64,000 bases of DNA from positions 7,375 through 71,374 of the forward strand of contig JBGAFQ010000002.1 of NCBI GenBank assembly GCA_044227195.1. Reading direction: 5' to 3'. The position numbers and the translations under genes were made by a program. Shown piece by piece: positions 6,380 to 32,824 of this stretch (the stretch's first letter is position 1; each line of letters begins with the position of its first letter). The notes under the pieces were generated by a model. It saw only the letters and a list, made by a program, of their open reading frames with translations. It was not told the origin of the DNA and did no database searches. This stretch comes from Thiobacillus sp. (GTDB lineage Bacteria > Pseudomonadota > Gammaproteobacteria > Burkholderiales > Thiobacillaceae).

Positions 6380-7432
6380 ATGCCGCTGGTCGCGCACAAT
6401 GCCCTGCCCACCTTCGAGCGCCTGCGCCGCGACGGCATGACCGTGCTCTCCACCGAGCGCGCGGCCAGGCAGGAAATCCGCGAGCTGCACGTCGGCCTGC
6501 TCAACATGATGCCGGACGCCGCGCTGGAGGCGACCGAGCGCCAGTTCTACCGGCTGGTCGGCGAATCCAACCCGATCGCGCAGTTCTACATGCATCCCTT
6601 CACCCTGCCCACGCTGCCGCGCGGCGACAAGGCGCGCGCGCACATCGCGTCGCATTACGAAAGCTTCGATGCCATCCGGGAGGCGGGCCTGGATGCGCTC
6701 ATCATCACCGGCGCCAACGTCAGCCAGCCCAGGCTCGCCGACGAGGCCTTCTGGCAGCCGATGATCGAGGTGATCGACTGGGCCTGGGACCACGTCACGT
6801 CGACCTTGTGCTCCTGCCTCGCCACCCACGCCGTGATGCAGTTTCGCTACGGCCAGACGCGGGTAAAGCAGCCGAACAAGATATGGGGCGTGTTCGAACA
6901 TCGGGTCGTCGACGCGCGCCACCCGCTGGTTGCCGACGTCAACACCCGATTCGATGTCCCGCATTCGCGCTGGAACGACGTCTCGCGTGCGCAGTTCGAG
7001 GCGGCCGGCGTCAAGGTGCTGGCGGAAAGCGCGGCGGCCGGCGTGCATCTGGCGGTGAGCCCGGACGGCCTGCGCACCGTGTTCTTCCAGGGCCATCCCG
7101 AATACGACACGGTGTCGCTCCTGAAGGAATACAAGCGCGACCTGCTGCTCGCGGCGGCGGGTACGCTGCCCGCCTATCCGCCGTTTCCCGCGCGTACCTT
7201 CGACTTGCAGGCACGCGCCCTGCTGGAGGAGTACGCCAGCCGCCTGCATGCCGGCGAGACGCTGGAATTCCCCGAGGCGCTGGTGGCGCCCCGCCTCGAC
7301 AACACCTGGCACGACACCGCCGAAGGCGTGGTCGGCAATTGGATCGGCTGCGTCTACCAGGTCACCCACCGCGAGCGCGGCCTGCCGTTCATGCCGGGGA
7401 TCGATCCCGACAACCCGCTGGGTCTGGCGTGA
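6380..7432 (+). CDS. metA: Homoserine O-acyltransferase (MetA family, probably succinyl)
   Basis: GLLNMMPD, LIITGANVS, catalytic CSCLATH and QGHPEY. A small residue (Ser) rather than Glu at the TGAPxG/E specificity position suggests succinyl-CoA use. Confidence 0.9.
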   Translation: MPLVAHNALPTFERLRRDGMTVLSTERAARQEIRELHVGLLNMMPDAALEATERQFYRLVGESNPIAQFYMHPFTLPTLPRGDKARAHIASHYESFDAIREAGLDALIITGANVSQPRLADEAFWQPMIEVIDWAWDHVTSTLCSCLATHAVMQFRYGQTRVKQPNKIWGVFEHRVVDARHPLVADVNTRFDVPHSRWNDVSRAQFEAAGVKVLAESAAAGVHLAVSPDGLRTVFFQGHPEYDTVSLLKEYKRDLLLAAAGTLPAYPPFPARTFDLQARALLEEYASRLHAGETLEFPEALVAPRLDNTWHDTAEGVVGNWIGCVYQVTHRERGLPFMPGIDPDNPLGLA

Positions 7433-27325: not shown

Positions 27326-28441
27326 ATGAAACGATACTGGCTGGCGTTGTTGCTGGCGTTGTCCGCTCCGGCGTGGGGCACGCCGACAGGCGTGAGCGCA
27401 CGCGCCTGGGTGCTGATCGACCAGGCGAGCGGGCGCGAACTGGCCGCGCATCAGGCGGATCTGCCGCTGCCGCCCGCCTCGCTCGCGCAGCTGATGACGG
27501 CCTACGTGCTGCTGGGCGATCTAAAGAACGGCAAGCTCTCGCTCGCCGAGACGGTGAAGGTGCCCGAGACAGCGACCAAGGCCGACGGCGCCCGTGTCTT
27601 TCTCAAGGCCGGCGATCCGGCCAGCGTCGATACCCTCATCCAGGCCATGCTGGTCGAATCGGCGAGCGACGCGGTGCTGACCCTGGTGACGGCGACGGAC
27701 GGCGGCGAGGCGGACTTCGTCGAACGCATGAACCGCGAGGCCCGGCGGCTCGGCATGACGCGCACGCGCTTCGTGAACGCGACCGGGCTGCCCGCACCCG
27801 GACAGCAATCGAGCGCGCGCGATCTGGCCATCCTGGCGCGCGCCCTGATCCGCGATTTTCCCGATCGGCTGGCCTGGTTCGCGCAACGCGAGCTCGCCTA
27901 CAGCGGCCTCACCTACTACAACGGCAACCGCCTGCTGTGGCGCGACGCCACGGTGGACGGCCTGAAGGCGGGGCGTAGCGCGGAAGCCGGCTATTGCCTG
28001 ACCGCGTCGTCGAAGCGCGGCGACCAGCGCCGCATTGCCGTGGTCCTGGGCGTGCGCGGCGACGCGCAGCGCACGCAGGACGCGTTGAAGCTGCTCAACT
28101 ACGGTTTCGAGAATTTCGACAGTGCGCTGCTTTATCGCGCCCAGCAGCCCGTCAAGGTGGTGAAGCTGTATCGTGGCGCGCGTTCCACGGTGAGCCTCGG
28201 TTTCCTGCAGGACTTCCACCTGCTGGCGCCGCGCGGGTCGCTCGGCCGGATCAAGGCCGAGATCGTGACGCGCCAGCCGGTGGTGGCGCCGATCAGCCGC
28301 GGCCAGCAGCTCGGCACGCTGCGGCTGAAACTGGACGACCAGATTCTCGGCGAATACCCGCTGGTGGCCCTGCACGACGTGAGTGTGGCCGGCGTGCTCG
28401 GGCGCGGCTGGGATTCGATCCGGCTGATGTTCGCACGATGA
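27326..28441 (+). CDS. D-alanyl-D-alanine carboxypeptidase homologue (PBP5/6) with degenerate active site
   Basis: S11 family layout and dacA position, but the motifs read S52-L-A-Q55, S112-A-S114 and K214-A-G. Confidence 0.85.
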   Translation: MKRYWLALLLALSAPAWGTPTGVSARAWVLIDQASGRELAAHQADLPLPPASLAQLMTAYVLLGDLKNGKLSLAETVKVPETATKADGARVFLKAGDPASVDTLIQAMLVESASDAVLTLVTATDGGEADFVERMNREARRLGMTRTRFVNATGLPAPGQQSSARDLAILARALIRDFPDRLAWFAQRELAYSGLTYYNGNRLLWRDATVDGLKAGRSAEAGYCLTASSKRGDQRRIAVVLGVRGDAQRTQDALKLLNYGFENFDSALLYRAQQPVKVVKLYRGARSTVSLGFLQDFHLLAPRGSLGRIKAEIVTRQPVVAPISRGQQLGTLRLKLDDQILGEYPLVALHDVSVAGVLGRGWDSIRLMFAR

Positions 28442-29301
28442 TCGCCTGGCTGAACGGCAACTTCATTCCGCTTGCCGAGGCGCGCGTGTCCGTGCTCGAC
28501 CGTGGCTTCGTGTTCGGCGACGGCGTGTACGAGATCGTGCCGGTGTATTCGAAGCGGCCGTTCCGGCTGGACGAGCACCTGCGTCGCTTGCAACACAGCC
28601 TGGATGGCATCCGGCTCGCCAATCCGCATGGCGTCGACGTCTGGCGCGGCTTGATTCTCGATCTGATCGCGCGCCAGGATTTCCCGGACCAGTCGCTCTA
28701 CATCCAGGTCACGCGCGGGACGCCGGATCAAACCCAGCCGCCGCGCGACCATGCGTTTCCCCGGGGGGTCGCGCCCACGGTGTTCCTGTACGCGCAGCCG
28801 TTGGTGACCGCGACGACGGAACAGAAAGCCGCCGGCGTGGGCGCGATCACCGCCCCCGATCCGCGCTGGCAGCATTGCGACATCAAGGCGATCTCGCTGC
28901 TGGCCAACGTGCTGATGCGGCAGCGGGCGGTGGACGCGGGTTGCGCCGAGACGGTGATGCTGCGCGACGGCTTCCTCGCAGAAGGCGCGGCGAGCAACAT
29001 CTTCGTGGTGCAGGACGGGGTCTTGCTAACGCCGCCGCCGTCCCCACATATGCTCGCGGGCATCACCTACGACGTGGTGCTCGAACTGGCCGCCGCGCAC
29101 GGTATTCCCCGTGAAGTGCGCCCCGTGACCGAAGCCGAGCTGCGCGCCGCCGACGAACTGTGGATGACCTCGTCGACCCGGGAAATCATGGCGATCGTGA
29201 CGCTCGACGGCGCCCCCGTCGGGGCCGGCGTCCCGGGGCCGGTGGCACGCCGGATGGATAGGCTGTACCAGCAATTCAAACAGGACGTGATGCGCGCATG
29301 A
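28438..29301 (+). CDS. dat: D-amino acid aminotransferase (PLP fold IV)
   Basis: [31 protein letters not shown]. Confidence 0.9.
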
Positions 29302-29564
29302 GCGAACAGGAAACCCTGCTGACCTTCCCGACCGACTTCCCCATCAAGATCATGGGCGAACGGCGCGACGACTTCGCCCAGACCATGGTCGAGGTCGTGC
29401 GGCGTCACGCGCCGGATTTCCAGCCCGAGACGGTCGAGATGCGCGCTTCGTCGAGCGGAAACTATCTCTCGGTGACCTGCGTGGTGCGCGCCACCTCGAA
29501 AGACCAGCTCGACAACCTGTACCGCGAGATCACTGCGCATCCGTGGGTGAAGATGGCGCTCTAG
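29298..29564 (+). CDS. ybeD: YbeD/DUF493 protein
   Basis: [24 protein letters not shown]; synteny before lipB. Confidence 0.9.
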
Positions 29565-29587
29565 TGGTGAACGGCGAGCAGCAAGCA

Positions 29588-30196
29588 GTGAGCGGTGGGC
29601 TGATCGTGCGGCATCTGGGGCGCGTCGCGTACGAACCGACCTGGCGGGCGATGCAGGACTTCACCGCGCGGCGCGATGCCGACACGCCGGACGAACTCTG
29701 GCTGCTGGAGCATCCGCCGGTCTACACCCAGGGGCAGGCGGGCAAGCCGGAACACCTGATTGCGCCGACCGCCATCCCCGTGCTGCCCATCGACCGCGGC
29801 GGGCAGATCACCTACCACGGGCCGGGACAGGTCGTGGCCTATCTGCTGATCGATCTGCGGCGGCGCGGCTACGGCATCCGCGAGCTGGTGACGCGCATGG
29901 AGCAGGCGGTGATCAACCTGCTGGCACGGCACGGCGTCGCCGCCGAGCGCATGGCCGGCGCGCCCGGCGTCTACGTCGCCGGTGCGAAAATCGCCGCACT
30001 GGGGCTGCGGGTGAAGCGCGGTTGCACGTATCATGGTCTTGCGCTCAACGTGGATATGGACCTGGGCCCGTTCGCGGCGATCAATCCCTGCGGCTATCCC
30101 GGCATGGCGGTCACGCAGTGCCGCACTCTGGGCGTGGCTTTGTCGATGCCGCAGGCGGAGCAGGCGCTTACTGTTGCGCTGCAGGCAGCGTTATAG
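29588..30196 (+). CDS. lipB: Octanoyltransferase
   Basis: [31 protein letters not shown]. Confidence 0.95.
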
Positions 30197-30226
30197 TTGA
30201 CTAATTTACTAGGATATTAGTATCCT
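30193..30226 (+). promoter_or_regulatory. IscR type-1-like operator over a sigma70 promoter
   Basis: ATAGTTGACTAATTTACTAGGATAT (30193-30217) matches 22/25 positions of ATASYYGACTRWWWYAGTCRRSTAT. TTGACT 30197-30202, 18 nt, TATCCT 30221-30226. Confidence 0.72.
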
Positions 30227-30250
30227 TGCGGCTTCCCCTGGAGTGATTTC

Positions 30251-31366
30251 ATGAACACCGACACCCTGCCGTCCGACCCCAAGCTCCTGATGCGATCGAT
30301 CATCCAGCGCATCGCGACCGGTCCCGATCTTTCCAAGGACATCAGTCGCACCGAGGCGCATCTCGGCACCAAGGCGATCATCGAAAACATCATCGATCCG
30401 ATCCAGGTGGGCATCTACTTCATCGCCCTGCGCATGAAGCGCGAGACCATGGATGAGAACCGGGGCGTGCTTGACGCGGTGCTGGAGACCACGCAGCGCG
30501 TGACGGCCGCGGTGGACGAGGTGGTCGACATCGGCGATCCCTATGACGGTTACAACCGCTGCCTGCCGGCCGCGCCTTTCCTCGGCCCGCTGCTCGCCGA
30601 GTTCGGCGTGCACGTGGTGTCGCACGGTCTCGACAAGGTGGGGCCGAAATACGGCGTCACCGCGCGCCACGTGCTGGAAGCCGCCGGCGTGCCGGTGAAT
30701 CTCGCCCCGGCCGAAGCGGCTGCACGGCTGGCCGACCCGGCGATCGGCTGGACCTATCTCGATCAGGCGCAATCCAATCCCGGCCTGCACAACCTCACCC
30801 CGCTGCGCGCGCAGATGATCAAGCGCCAGGTGCTGACCACGGTGGAGGTGCTGTCCAAGCCCATCCAGGGCCGCAAGCAGACCCACTTCGTCACCGGCTA
30901 TGTGCACAAACCGTATCCGCCGGTGTACGCCGACCTCGCGCGCGAGGCCGGGTTCGACACCGCCTGCATCGTGCGCGGCGTCGAGGGCGGCGTGATCCCC
31001 AGCCTGCGCCAGGAGGGCAAGTACTTCCACTACCACGACCGTGGCGAAGAAATCGAGGCCAGGATCGATCCGGTCGCGCTGGGTATCGACCAGCCGGTGC
31101 GCGCCGTGCCGCTGCCCGGTTCGGTCGCGGGCGAAGCGGGCGAGGACGAGATCGTCGCCGCCATCGACATCCAGGCCACCGCGCGTGCCGCTGCCGAAGC
31201 CGGCATCCTCGCGCTCAAGGGCGACCGTGGGCCGACCTACGATTCGCTGGTGCTGGCCGGTTCGGTCATCCTGCACCATGTCGGCAAGGCGGCCAGCGTC
31301 GCCGAGGCCGCCGCGCAGATTCGCGCCGTACTCGACTCGGGCAAGGCCGTCTCGCGGGTGAAGTGA
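30251..31366 (+). CDS. Glycosyltransferase family 3 fold protein (TrpD/YbiB-like), probably not TrpD
   Basis: N-terminal helical domain (FIALRMKRET.DE) and TrpD-like core, but DIGDPYDGYNR in place of GTGGD and SHG in place of KHGN. Confidence 0.8.
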   Translation: MNTDTLPSDPKLLMRSIIQRIATGPDLSKDISRTEAHLGTKAIIENIIDPIQVGIYFIALRMKRETMDENRGVLDAVLETTQRVTAAVDEVVDIGDPYDGYNRCLPAAPFLGPLLAEFGVHVVSHGLDKVGPKYGVTARHVLEAAGVPVNLAPAEAAARLADPAIGWTYLDQAQSNPGLHNLTPLRAQMIKRQVLTTVEVLSKPIQGRKQTHFVTGYVHKPYPPVYADLAREAGFDTACIVRGVEGGVIPSLRQEGKYFHYHDRGEEIEARIDPVALGIDQPVRAVPLPGSVAGEAGEDEIVAAIDIQATARAAAEAGILALKGDRGPTYDSLVLAGSVILHHVGKAASVAEAAAQIRAVLDSGKAVSRVK

Positions 31367-31674
31367 TGGGGGAATACGTCGCCATCGCTGCCGCAGACGA
31401 ACTCAAGCCGGCGCAGATGAAGCGCGTCATCGTCGATGGAAAACGGCTACTGCTGTGCAACTCGAACGGCACCCACTACGTCGTCGACGAAATGTGCAGC
31501 CACGAGGACTATTCGCTGTATCTTGGCTGCATCAAGGACGGCAAGATCAAGTGTTCGCTCCACGGCAGCTATTTCGACCTGACAACCGGCGAACCCACCT
31601 GCGATCCGGCCGATACCCCGATCCGTACCTACCCGGTGAAGGTCGAGGCCGGCCAGGTGTGGGTGAAGGGGTAG
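31366..31674 (+). CDS. Stand-alone Rieske [2Fe-2S] ferredoxin
   Basis: CSH...CSLH ligand set, FDLTTG; TGATG coupling to the upstream gene. Confidence 0.92.
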   Translation: MGEYVAIAAADELKPAQMKRVIVDGKRLLLCNSNGTHYVVDEMCSHEDYSLYLGCIKDGKIKCSLHGSYFDLTTGEPTCDPADTPIRTYPVKVEAGQVWVKG

Positions 31675-31744
31675 GGGCTAGGATTCGGGGGGTTGCGCGG
31701 CGCAGCCGCACAAGGCCCCCTAGTCCCTAAATCCCAGCCCCTAC
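31671..31744. repeat. Imperfect inverted repeat with heptamer-like units between convergent genes
   Basis: Arms GTAGGGGCTAGGATTCGGG (31671-31689) and CCTAAATCCCAGCCCCTAC (31726-31744) each include a stop codon. Confidence 0.65.
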
Positions 31745-32286
31745 TTCCCCAGCACCGCCCGAATCGCCGCAACCAGCTCCGGATGGTCGAATTCGCGGCC
31801 GCCTATGGCGCTGGCAACGATGCGCCCCTGCTTGTTCACCAGATAAGTCGTCGGCAGGCCGGCCACTTTCCAGGCCTGCATGGCGTGACTGCGGGTGTCG
31901 AGCAGGATGGGGGAGGCGAGGCTGGCGTCCAGCTGGCTGGTGAAAGTGTGGATCGTGTCCGAGTCCTCGCCGACATCCACCGCCAGCACTTCGAAAGCCT
32001 CGCCGGCAAGCGCGTCCTTCAGGCGCTGCATCGACGGCATTTCGCGCCGGCAGGGCGGACACCAGGTCGCCCAGAAATTCACCAGCACGACCTTGCCGCG
32101 CAGTGCAGCGAGATCGTGTGTCCGGCCGTCGAGGTCCTTGAGCTTCAGCGCCGGCGTGGGTCTGGGCGCCTGCGCACTGAGGCTGTGCGACAGCGGCGGC
32201 AGATCGGCCGCCGCGACGGGCAAGGCGAGGGTGAGGCCCAGCGCGACCAGGCACGTGGGCAGGGGATTACGACGTTTCAGCGGCAC
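31741..32286 (-). CDS. TlpA/ResA-family thiol-disulfide oxidoreductase
   Basis: LVNFWATWCPPCRREMP, GLPTTYLV, signal peptide; GTG start estimated. Confidence 0.9.
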   Translation of the reverse strand: MPLKRRNPLPTCLVALGLTLALPVAAADLPPLSHSLSAQAPRPTPALKLKDLDGRTHDLAALRGKVVLVNFWATWCPPCRREMPSMQRLKDALAGEAFEVLAVDVGEDSDTIHTFTSQLDASLASPILLDTRSHAMQAWKVAGLPTTYLVNKQGRIVASAIGGREFDHPELVAAIRAVLGK

Positions 32287-32824
32287 ATTGCACCTCTTCG
32301 AGGGTTCCAGAAAATGTCTTGCCGTTGGCACGCCAGACGAAGCGCAGGCTGAACCGTTCGCCGCGCGGCACATGGTAAGTCGTCATGCCCTGGTTCCAGT
32401 CGCCCGGCTCGAAGGTCTGGGTTGCGGGGAACTGAGCCCAGTTGAAGGCGATGCGTGCAGACTCGTTCACCCCGAGTTTTTTCCATAGGCGCTCCCATTC
32501 TGTCTTGCTGCGGATCGGCAGGGATTGGCCGGCACGCGCATAGCGCCAGTCGGCCAGACGATGCCGGATGGGCGCGTCGCCGACGTTGCGGACCACGGTC
32601 ATGAAGACGCACTCGGCGGCATAACGTTCCGCGGCTTCGGCAGAAAAGCCGCGCGCCCGATAGAAGGCGCGCGCCTGGTCGGGGCTGATCTGCGTCAGCC
32701 GTATCTGGATGCCGTCGGTTTCGGTCTGCCAGGTGGAAAGCCCGGTCTCGGAATCGAGGCTGGGCGTGCCGGCGTGAGCGACGAGCGGCCATGCCGCGAA
32801 CAGGGTCAGGACGAATCGGCGCAT
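32267..32824 (-). CDS. Exported hypothetical protein
   Basis: Signal peptide ending AHA, host-like codon usage, overlaps the tlpA start. Confidence 0.75.

Follow-up and report, generated by a model that had tools for sequence, protein, structure and literature searches.

A predicted IscR type-1 operator at the promoter of a TrpD-fold protein and Rieske ferredoxin operon in Thiobacillus

We analysed a stretch of 64,000 nucleotides from Thiobacillus sp. (the window, i.e., contig C53 from position 7375 to 71374, in an assembly of 2.79 Mb with 65% GC and 77 contigs), in which a 25-bp box resembling a binding site of the regulator IscR lies on the promoter of an operon for a TrpD-fold protein and a Rieske-type [2Fe-2S] ferredoxin. 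By all computational tests applied, the box behaved as a real operator. We therefore consider it likely, judging from sequence, that the box is a genuine type-1 operator of the IscR of this Thiobacillus, at which holo-IscR would repress transcription and would release it under a shortage of iron-sulfur (Fe-S) clusters, and that the two products form a two-component redox system. By analogy, the operon is probably switched on when Fe-S clusters run short, because type-1 sites are known to behave in this way.

The operator and its promoter

The box, ATAGTTGACTAATTTACTAGGATAT, overlaps the stop codon TAG of lipB (30194-30196) on the plus strand. An initial annotation of this DNA had placed a 25-mer across the lipB stop and the -35 region, and both positions were recovered here (box at 30193-30217, predicted -35 hexamer at 30197-30202). 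The IscR consensus that the same annotation had used is indeed the published type-1 consensus, ATASYYGACTRWWWYAGTCRRSTAT (PMC6599224). When the window was searched with ATASYYGACTRWWWYAGTCRRSTAT, allowing up to 3 mismatches and using 100 shuffles as the control, ATAGTTGACTAATTTACTAGGATAT was the sole match, and none was found across the 100 shuffles; a recount of identical positions gave the same 22/25 that had been claimed before. The promoter scan returned TTGACT-18 nt-TATCCT as the sole promoter-like (sigma-70-like) site in 29900-32000. The box covers the predicted -35 hexamer and nearly the whole spacer, ends 4 nt before the predicted -10 hexamer and is separated from the ATG by 33 nt, compared to 34 nt for the proximal box of iscR. 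Site B of the Pseudomonas aeruginosa iscR promoter, ATAGTTGACCTAATTACTCGGATAA, also lies between the -35 and the -10, and boxes over the -35 and the spacer repress at iscR promoters (PMC6599224).

The features of the module, all on the plus strand, are as follows (positions are those of the window).

30193-30217: predicted IscR type-1 operator, ATAGTTGACTAATTTACTAGGATAT, with the consensus match given above and 33.1 bits in the leave-out matrix
30197-30202: TTGACT, the predicted -35 hexamer, located within the left half-site (promoter scan)
30221-30226: predicted -10 hexamer TATCCT after a spacer of 18 nt (promoter scan); TATTCT in most orthologues
30240-30243: Shine-Dalgarno sequence GGAG, 7 nt before the ATG, retained in orthologous upstream regions
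30251-31366: TrpD-fold protein of 371 aa, uncharacterised "DPYDG" family (Pfam, AlphaFold2 [AF2] and Foldseek)
31366-31674: Rieske-type [2Fe-2S] ferredoxin of 102 aa, or 103 aa from the GTG at 31363 (Pfam Rieske domain and cluster ligands)

The two genes had been described as coupled, and they are, at the level of translation: the stop codon TGA of the TrpD-like gene (31364-31366) overlaps the ATG of the Rieske gene at 31366 (TGATG), and an in-frame GTG is present at 31363. Two further inverted repeats that had been pointed out over the -10, AGGATA-TTAG-TATCCT and TACTA-N6-TAGTA, do exist in the window but are not conserved in Thiobacillus, where they are perfect in just 2 of 44 distinct upstream regions. 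A second operator was rejected for that reason, and since the repeats are unconserved, we regard them as a side effect of the right half-site running up against the -10.

The IscR sites and the IscR protein of this genome

Scoring the box against the genome's own sites had been proposed as a check, and a symmetrised matrix was built from 11 other sites of this genome, drawn from the few palindromes that the consensus retrieved genome-wide, with the test site left out. ATAGTTGACTAATTTACTAGGATAT scored 33.1 bits with this matrix, which is rank 4 among the 13 sites of the genome and places it in the same class as both sites of the iscR promoter. The class is clearly set apart: a scan of the whole genome (2.79 Mb) gave 13 sites with at least 26.7 bits, the next best scored 13.7 bits, and nothing lay between. 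Two of the 13 stand in tandem in the iscR promoter, where iscR is followed by iscS-iscU-iscA. The box in front of cysE, which lies 15 bp before the start codon, is identical to ATAGTTGACTAATTTACTAGGATAT at 23 of 25 positions. The other sites, each with at least 26.7 bits, are given here by contig and position.

C19:43219 and C19:43247: iscR boxes
C19:44054: cysE box
C48:169063: grxD box
C67:99166: box of a TusE/DsrC-family gene
C45:18485: dsrA box
C2:4539: folE2 box
C67:37363: box of a YyaL-like thioredoxin-domain protein
C18:45684: box of an S24-peptidase-like protein (117 aa)
C18:46177: box of a 151-aa protein without assigned function
C29:22243 and C67:123381: two further sites

The predicted IscR regulon is thus sharply bounded, and as judged from its sites it extends to dissimilatory sulfur oxidation (dsrA and the DsrC/TusE-family gene) and to folE2 (folate/GTP cyclohydrolase IB). 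Neither dsrA nor the DsrC/TusE-family gene nor folE2 belongs to the classical IscR targets. In the dsrA gene behind the IscR box (C45:17176-18439, minus strand), the frame changes about 139 codons in and is carried on by a different open reading frame; either the gene is broken or the assembly contains a frameshift here.

The genome encodes an IscR that passes TIGR02010 with 215.9 bits (cut-off, 207.55) and has the cluster ligands C-x5-C-x5-C-x2-H (Cys92/Cys98/Cys104/His107); the CGGKENCHDEHRCLTH spacing is present. Its recognition helix, ISLSYLEQLFSRLR, and its wing, VRGPGGGY, are identical to those of Escherichia coli IscR in structure 4HF1. Only one other Rrf2 gene was found in the genome (C41:20313-20744), and its product is 22% identical to IscR. 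The system resembles known type-1 operators at iscR (sites A and B of E. coli, site B of P. aeruginosa) in the 25-bp palindromic consensus, the position relative to the predicted -35 and -10, the recognition helix and the cluster ligands. It differs from iscR promoters in having a single box instead of tandem boxes and in that the genes it would control do not serve Fe-S assembly.

Conservation of the box

In a first scan of 53 Thiobacillus loci, the best matrix match was always found 56-62 nt before the ATG, and it reached at least 21 bits in 50 of them. Comparison of 51 distinct upstream regions revealed that positions 1-2, 5-9, 15, 18 and 24-25 of the box are invariant and that positions 20-21 are GG in about 90%; TTGAC was invariant across these regions as well, and TAGTATyCT was conserved in a site-anchored alignment. 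Positions 15-25 of the box correspond to the predicted promoter spacer, and a promoter alone would not be expected to conserve them. Moreover, 7 loci in which lipB is 900-3300 bp away still have the box at the TrpD-like gene. We therefore treat lipB as context outside the module, as the box persists at orthologous loci without lipB directly upstream.

Outside the genus, matches of 37-39 bits were found in Sulfuriferula and other Thiobacillaceae. Matches of 18-31 bits were located 37-88 nt upstream of the pair at loci L080, L120, L170, L173 (the same as L075), L181, L188, L191 (Sedimenticola) and L198. In 57 non-Thiobacillus loci (420 kb), 8 of the 11 matches with at least 17 bits lay upstream of the TrpD-like gene by no more than 90 bp, i.e., in about 1.4% of the sequence, which is an enrichment upstream of the pair of approximately 190-fold. 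A maximum-likelihood tree of the TrpD-like proteins required at least eight gains or losses of the box. From these comparisons, the box appears to have been recruited repeatedly in other lineages; it is present in at least eight of them, next to differing neighbours. Conservation in orthologues, which had also been proposed as a check, thus held in Thiobacillus and at least eight other lineages but not in the Gallionellaceae. Taken together, the genome site class, the IscR helix and the conservation in orthologues bear out the central claim of the initial annotation, an IscR-type operator on the promoter of a TrpD-fold and Rieske operon.

The TrpD-fold protein

The first gene of the operon encodes a protein of 371 aa that passes the Pfam models Glycos_trans_3N (35.5 bits; cut-off, 26) and Glycos_transf_3 (41.3 bits; cut-off, 27). 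Its AF2 model had a confidence (predicted local distance difference test) of 91 and a predicted template modelling score of 0.90, and the top Foldseek matches of the model were TrpD structures, with template modelling (TM) scores of 0.72-0.77, E values down to 8e-19 and 16-21% identity. Based on the model, we are confident that the protein has the TrpD fold.

The fold does not make it a TrpD. It resembles TrpD (TIGR01245; 4HKM, 1KHD and the Mycobacterium tuberculosis structures) in the fold of the whole chain and in the LRxK.ET helix motif, which is kept, but it fails the TrpD model TIGR01245 (68.8 against 199.05 bits), and alignment to the solved TrpD structures showed DPYDG in place of GTGGD, SHGL in place of KHGN and GPKYGVTA in place of SSKSGSAD. 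A canonical trpD (GTGGDG) is present elsewhere in the genome, on contig C59 after trpG. Identity as TrpD was ruled out by the failed cut-off, the loss of GTGGD, KHGN and SxKSGSAD, the non-trp context and the separate canonical trpD. The annotation as anthranilate phosphoribosyltransferase that the protein bears in public records is almost certainly wrong.

Two other families of this fold were considered. YbiB/TrpD2 (4MUO, 8BFR, 7Y3P) is similar in having a TrpD fold without the phosphoribosyl pyrophosphate (PRPP) signature, a location outside the trp operon and a canonical TrpD elsewhere, and its model NF006005 was the second-best match in NCBIfam, but the score of 82.7 bits is far from the cut-off of 185 and this identity was ruled out, too. 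Unlike YbiB, the protein has invariant motifs of its own and a Rieske protein as its obligate partner, and it is without a dinG/LexA context. The best-scoring curated model was NF005635 (PRK07394, "hypothetical protein"), likewise a TrpD-like family without assigned function, with 137.6 bits over residues 15-248; the score is far under the cut-off of 287, which ruled out this identity as well.

The family is defined by the invariant motifs LRMKRET, DPYDG..R, GPKxGxT, GWxYxDQ, VKR, GYVHKxYP and RGxEGG, and no conserved cysteine was present in its alignment. It is rare: it was found in 3 of 401 sampled Pseudomonadota genomes, and 162 representative clusters were obtained at E <1e-30. Many relatives of 420-475 aa (P0221-P0269) have an N-terminal extension of about 100 residues without a Pfam domain; these extensions may be targeting peptides of plastid-type homologues.

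The Rieske partner and the gene neighbourhood of the pair

The second gene encodes a Rieske protein that matched PF00355 with 61.1 bits (cut-off, 20.3) and has the ligands CSH-x16-CSLH. Its closest solved relatives are dioxygenase ferredoxins, e.g., 2QPZ (E = 3e-14) and 3DQY. Indeed, it resembles the ferredoxins of ring-hydroxylating oxygenases (naphthalene, toluene, biphenyl and carbazole systems; HcaC) in its length of about 100 aa and its CxH...CxxH ligands, but it differs from them in having a TrpD-fold protein as its fixed partner and in being without an adjacent oxygenase or reductase component; no oxygenase or reductase gene was found near the Rieske gene in the locus. It scored under all equivalog cut-offs (HcaC, AndAb, MocE and NirD), the best being HcaC with 77.5 against 113 bits.

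The two genes are neighbours in all orthologues with at least 57% identity: from 62% identity upwards the Rieske gene always comes immediately after the TrpD-like gene, and the order is reversed in a relative with 57% identity. TrpD-like relatives with at most 41% identity were without a Rieske gene. From this linkage, the two proteins appear to be obligate partners. A fusion of the two was not confirmed: a concatenated query, scored on its Rieske part, retrieved only an unrelated HrcA-Rieske protein. Also, a scan of 10 relatives (up to 1072 aa) showed no Rieske domain in the N-terminal extensions of those with 407-475 aa.

The genes around the pair change from lineage to lineage. Adjacency to lipB was restricted to Thiobacillus and one lineage with 73% identity. 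Outside Thiobacillus, several genes recurred beside the pair: at 13 loci a PAS/sigma-54 activator immediately upstream, at 6 loci each cydA and a group-II truncated globin, and also genes for Tll0287-like haem proteins and small NifX-like proteins; the loci with PAS/sigma-54, cydPABX operon, globin or Tll0287-like neighbours are L120, L170, L173, L077, L078, L179, L180, L181, L188, L174, L178, L192 and L194. At L181 and L188 the globin gene and the pair point away from each other, and the IscR box lies within the gap that they share. These neighbours hint, loosely, at O2, nitric oxide (NO) or haem biology and not at Fe-S assembly.

Distant members of the DPYDG family (31-39% identity, no Rieske partner) were located next to cysG (L111-L113), hemE (L117), hemB (L118) and a cytochrome c gene (L116). 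Neighbours from tetrapyrrole biosynthesis or cytochromes were present at 4 of the 5 loci examined, and those from haem biosynthesis at 3 of 5, numbers that are too few for evidence and remain anecdotal. A wider look across genomes for distant relatives gave no usable pattern from alignment A1, no relatives of P0201 and only 2 of P0175.

The locus in the window

Upstream of the pair, the plus strand carries a row of dacA (27326-28441), a D-amino-acid aminotransferase gene, a ybeD-like gene (29298-29564) and lipB, and the gap between lipB and the TrpD-like gene is 54 bp. Downstream of the Rieske gene are two minus-strand genes, one for a TlpA-like thiol-disulfide oxidoreductase, the other for a protein of 185 aa without a family, and then lipA. 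Two flanking features were annotated.

29567-30196, plus strand: lipB (octanoyltransferase; NCBIfam NF010922, 300.7 bits, cut-off 235), with its stop codon inside the IscR box
31668-31747, no strand assigned: long hairpin, rich in GC, in the gap where the Rieske gene and the TlpA-like gene of the minus strand converge (folding energy)

The hairpin has a folding energy of -49.4 kcal/mol (z = -4.0), and none of 200 shuffles folded equally well; it is a likely operon end. Its arms (TAGGGGyyAGGATT-like) occur in about 34 copies genome-wide, sometimes in tandem, and look like a dispersed family of repetitive extragenic palindromic (REP)-like repeats. The TlpA/ResA-like oxidoreductase gene and the gene of the 185-aa protein, which looks exported and matched no family, form a small minus-strand operon (31741-32824) between the Rieske gene and lipA. 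Both are missing from that position in several Thiobacillus genomes (e.g., L006, L016, L018, L019 and L024).

Proposed mechanism

According to our proposal, [2Fe-2S]-IscR would bind the box while Fe-S clusters are plentiful and would block RNA polymerase at a promoter of the sigma-70 type, which begins where lipB ends and has the box across its -35 and spacer. When the demand for clusters exceeds the supply, as under iron shortage or oxidative or NO damage, apo-IscR would predominate, which binds type-1 sites weakly, and the operon would be derepressed along with iscRSUA, cysE, grxD and other members of the regulon. The Rieske ferredoxin would then pass electrons to or from a ligand in the inter-domain cleft of the TrpD-fold protein. 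Binding by IscR and the direction of regulation are what we infer from the similarity of site and regulator to known systems.

Several observations weigh against this proposal. The left half-site is at the same time the predicted -35 hexamer, and part of its conservation is therefore expected to be conservation of the promoter. Since no convincing terminator was found between lipB and the TrpD-like gene, read-through from lipB may add transcription that is independent of IscR. In the Gallionellaceae, whose orthologues are 78-82% identical, no IscR box was found within 700 bp, and several further clades of orthologues are without the box as well. At the Thiobacillus-type locus L189, which encodes a 90% identical TrpD-like protein, a deletion (L189:2930-3000) removes the -35 and the left half-site and leaves the -10, and we read this as a natural loss of operator and promoter. 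Because the box is missing in the Gallionellaceae, in other clades and at L189, IscR control is not a fixed property of the family; as far as the sites tell, it is recurrent but neither universal nor fixed for the gene pair. Finally, electron transfer between the two proteins is proposed from the linkage of their genes. A Fur box as the element used in the Gallionellaceae was rejected, since the 19-mer consensus matched no better than in shuffles at 17 of 18 loci.

Alternative explanations

That the box resembles an IscR site by chance, or from the composition of an AT-rich promoter, could be argued from TTGAC doubling as the -35 and from the AT-rich intergenic DNA in a genome of 65% GC. It is extremely improbable and effectively refuted, since no shuffle matched, a gap of 13 bits separates the sites from the rest of the genome, positions in the spacer are invariant and matches in other lineages are enriched about 190-fold upstream of the pair. 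If the box is a true site, it might be read by another regulator, either the second Rrf2 paralogue at C41:20313-20744 or an unrelated palindrome-binding protein. We consider this very unlikely: the paralogue shares just 22% identity with IscR; two copies of the motif stand at iscR and others at cysE and grxD, the classical regulon of IscR; and the recognition helix of this IscR is the same as in E. coli IscR, the consensus of which fits the box. A different question is what IscR would do once bound. One possibility is a roadblock to read-through from dacA-lipB, or a modulation of it, as the overlap of the box with the lipB stop, the lack of a convincing terminator and the position of the cysE box 15 bp before the start codon, which suggests such layouts in the regulon, would allow; another is activation. 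However, the distance between box and ATG stays the same where lipB is not upstream and where the context is unrelated, the box is flanked by a conserved -35/-10 pair, and boxes over the -35 and spacer repress at iscR promoters. Activation by IscR has been described for type-2 sites upstream of the -35, as in the suf promoter of E. coli, where the activating site is of this type. A role other than simple repression is, in our view, quite unlikely.

The function of the pair is a separate matter from its control. The initial annotation had suggested a part in cluster or cofactor maturation, e.g., in the service of LipA, and control by IscR, the position between lipB and lipA in Thiobacillus and the encoded [2Fe-2S] protein would fit. 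Our data did not support this suggestion, and we rate it as unlikely: most other lineages have lost the lip neighbours, the TrpD-like protein has no conserved Cys, an Fdx is already present in the isc operon, many orthologues (those of the Gallionellaceae included) are without IscR control, and the recurrent neighbours elsewhere are related to haem or O2 and not to Fe-S assembly. For the Rieske protein as a replacement of the ISC ferredoxin, the Fdx of the isc operon, which scored 189 bits and over the cut-off, was decisive, and this candidate was rejected. Binding of nucleic acid by the TrpD-like protein in the manner of YbiB/TrpD2, with the Rieske protein as a redox sensor in a regulatory or repair module, is likewise rather improbable. 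The PRPP signature is lost as in YbiB, the basic residues R61, K63, R64, R186, K191, R192 and H219 are invariant, and YbiB ranks second among the NCBIfam matches. However, the score is 82.7 bits against the YbiB cut-off of 185, neither a helicase neighbour (dinG) nor a LexA context was found in about 140 loci, and DPYDG, GPKxGxT, GYVHKxYP and RGxEGG stand at the positions of the substrate loops of TrpD, which is a better fit to a site for a small molecule. More tentatively, and with doubt on our side, the TrpD fold could have been recruited into a new redox enzyme of two components, in which it would bind the substrate or carry out catalysis, a dedicated Rieske ferredoxin would carry the electrons and the substrate would be an anionic molecule of cofactor type; this enzyme would belong to the Fe-S stress response of chemolithoautotrophs that oxidise sulfur, iron or hydrogen. 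If so, control by IscR would have been acquired or retained in several lineages because the enzyme is part of that response, and the haem- and O2-related neighbours would hint at tetrapyrrole or oxidative-damage chemistry.

Meaning for the IscR regulon and the DPYDG family

Most mapping of IscR regulons has been done in enterobacteria and pseudomonads. The regulon of 13 sites predicted here for a sulfur oxidiser goes beyond Fe-S assembly and includes dsrA, a dsrC/tusE-like gene, folE2 and the TrpD-fold/Rieske pair. In the literature we found no IscR-regulated TrpD-like/Rieske pair and nothing relevant on the DPYDG family, and two papers on Thiobacillus make no mention of the genes; the pair adds a new member, built on a family of uncharacterised proteins, to the regulon. 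Since the cultured strains T. denitrificans RG and T. thioparus DSM 505 carry both the pair and the box, the prediction is directly testable. The strict pairing of the two genes and the repeated recruitment of the IscR box place the pair among the better-defined unknowns tied to Fe-S stress in chemolithoautotrophs, and if the TrpD-fold protein proves to be redox-coupled, a well-studied fold would gain a new activity.

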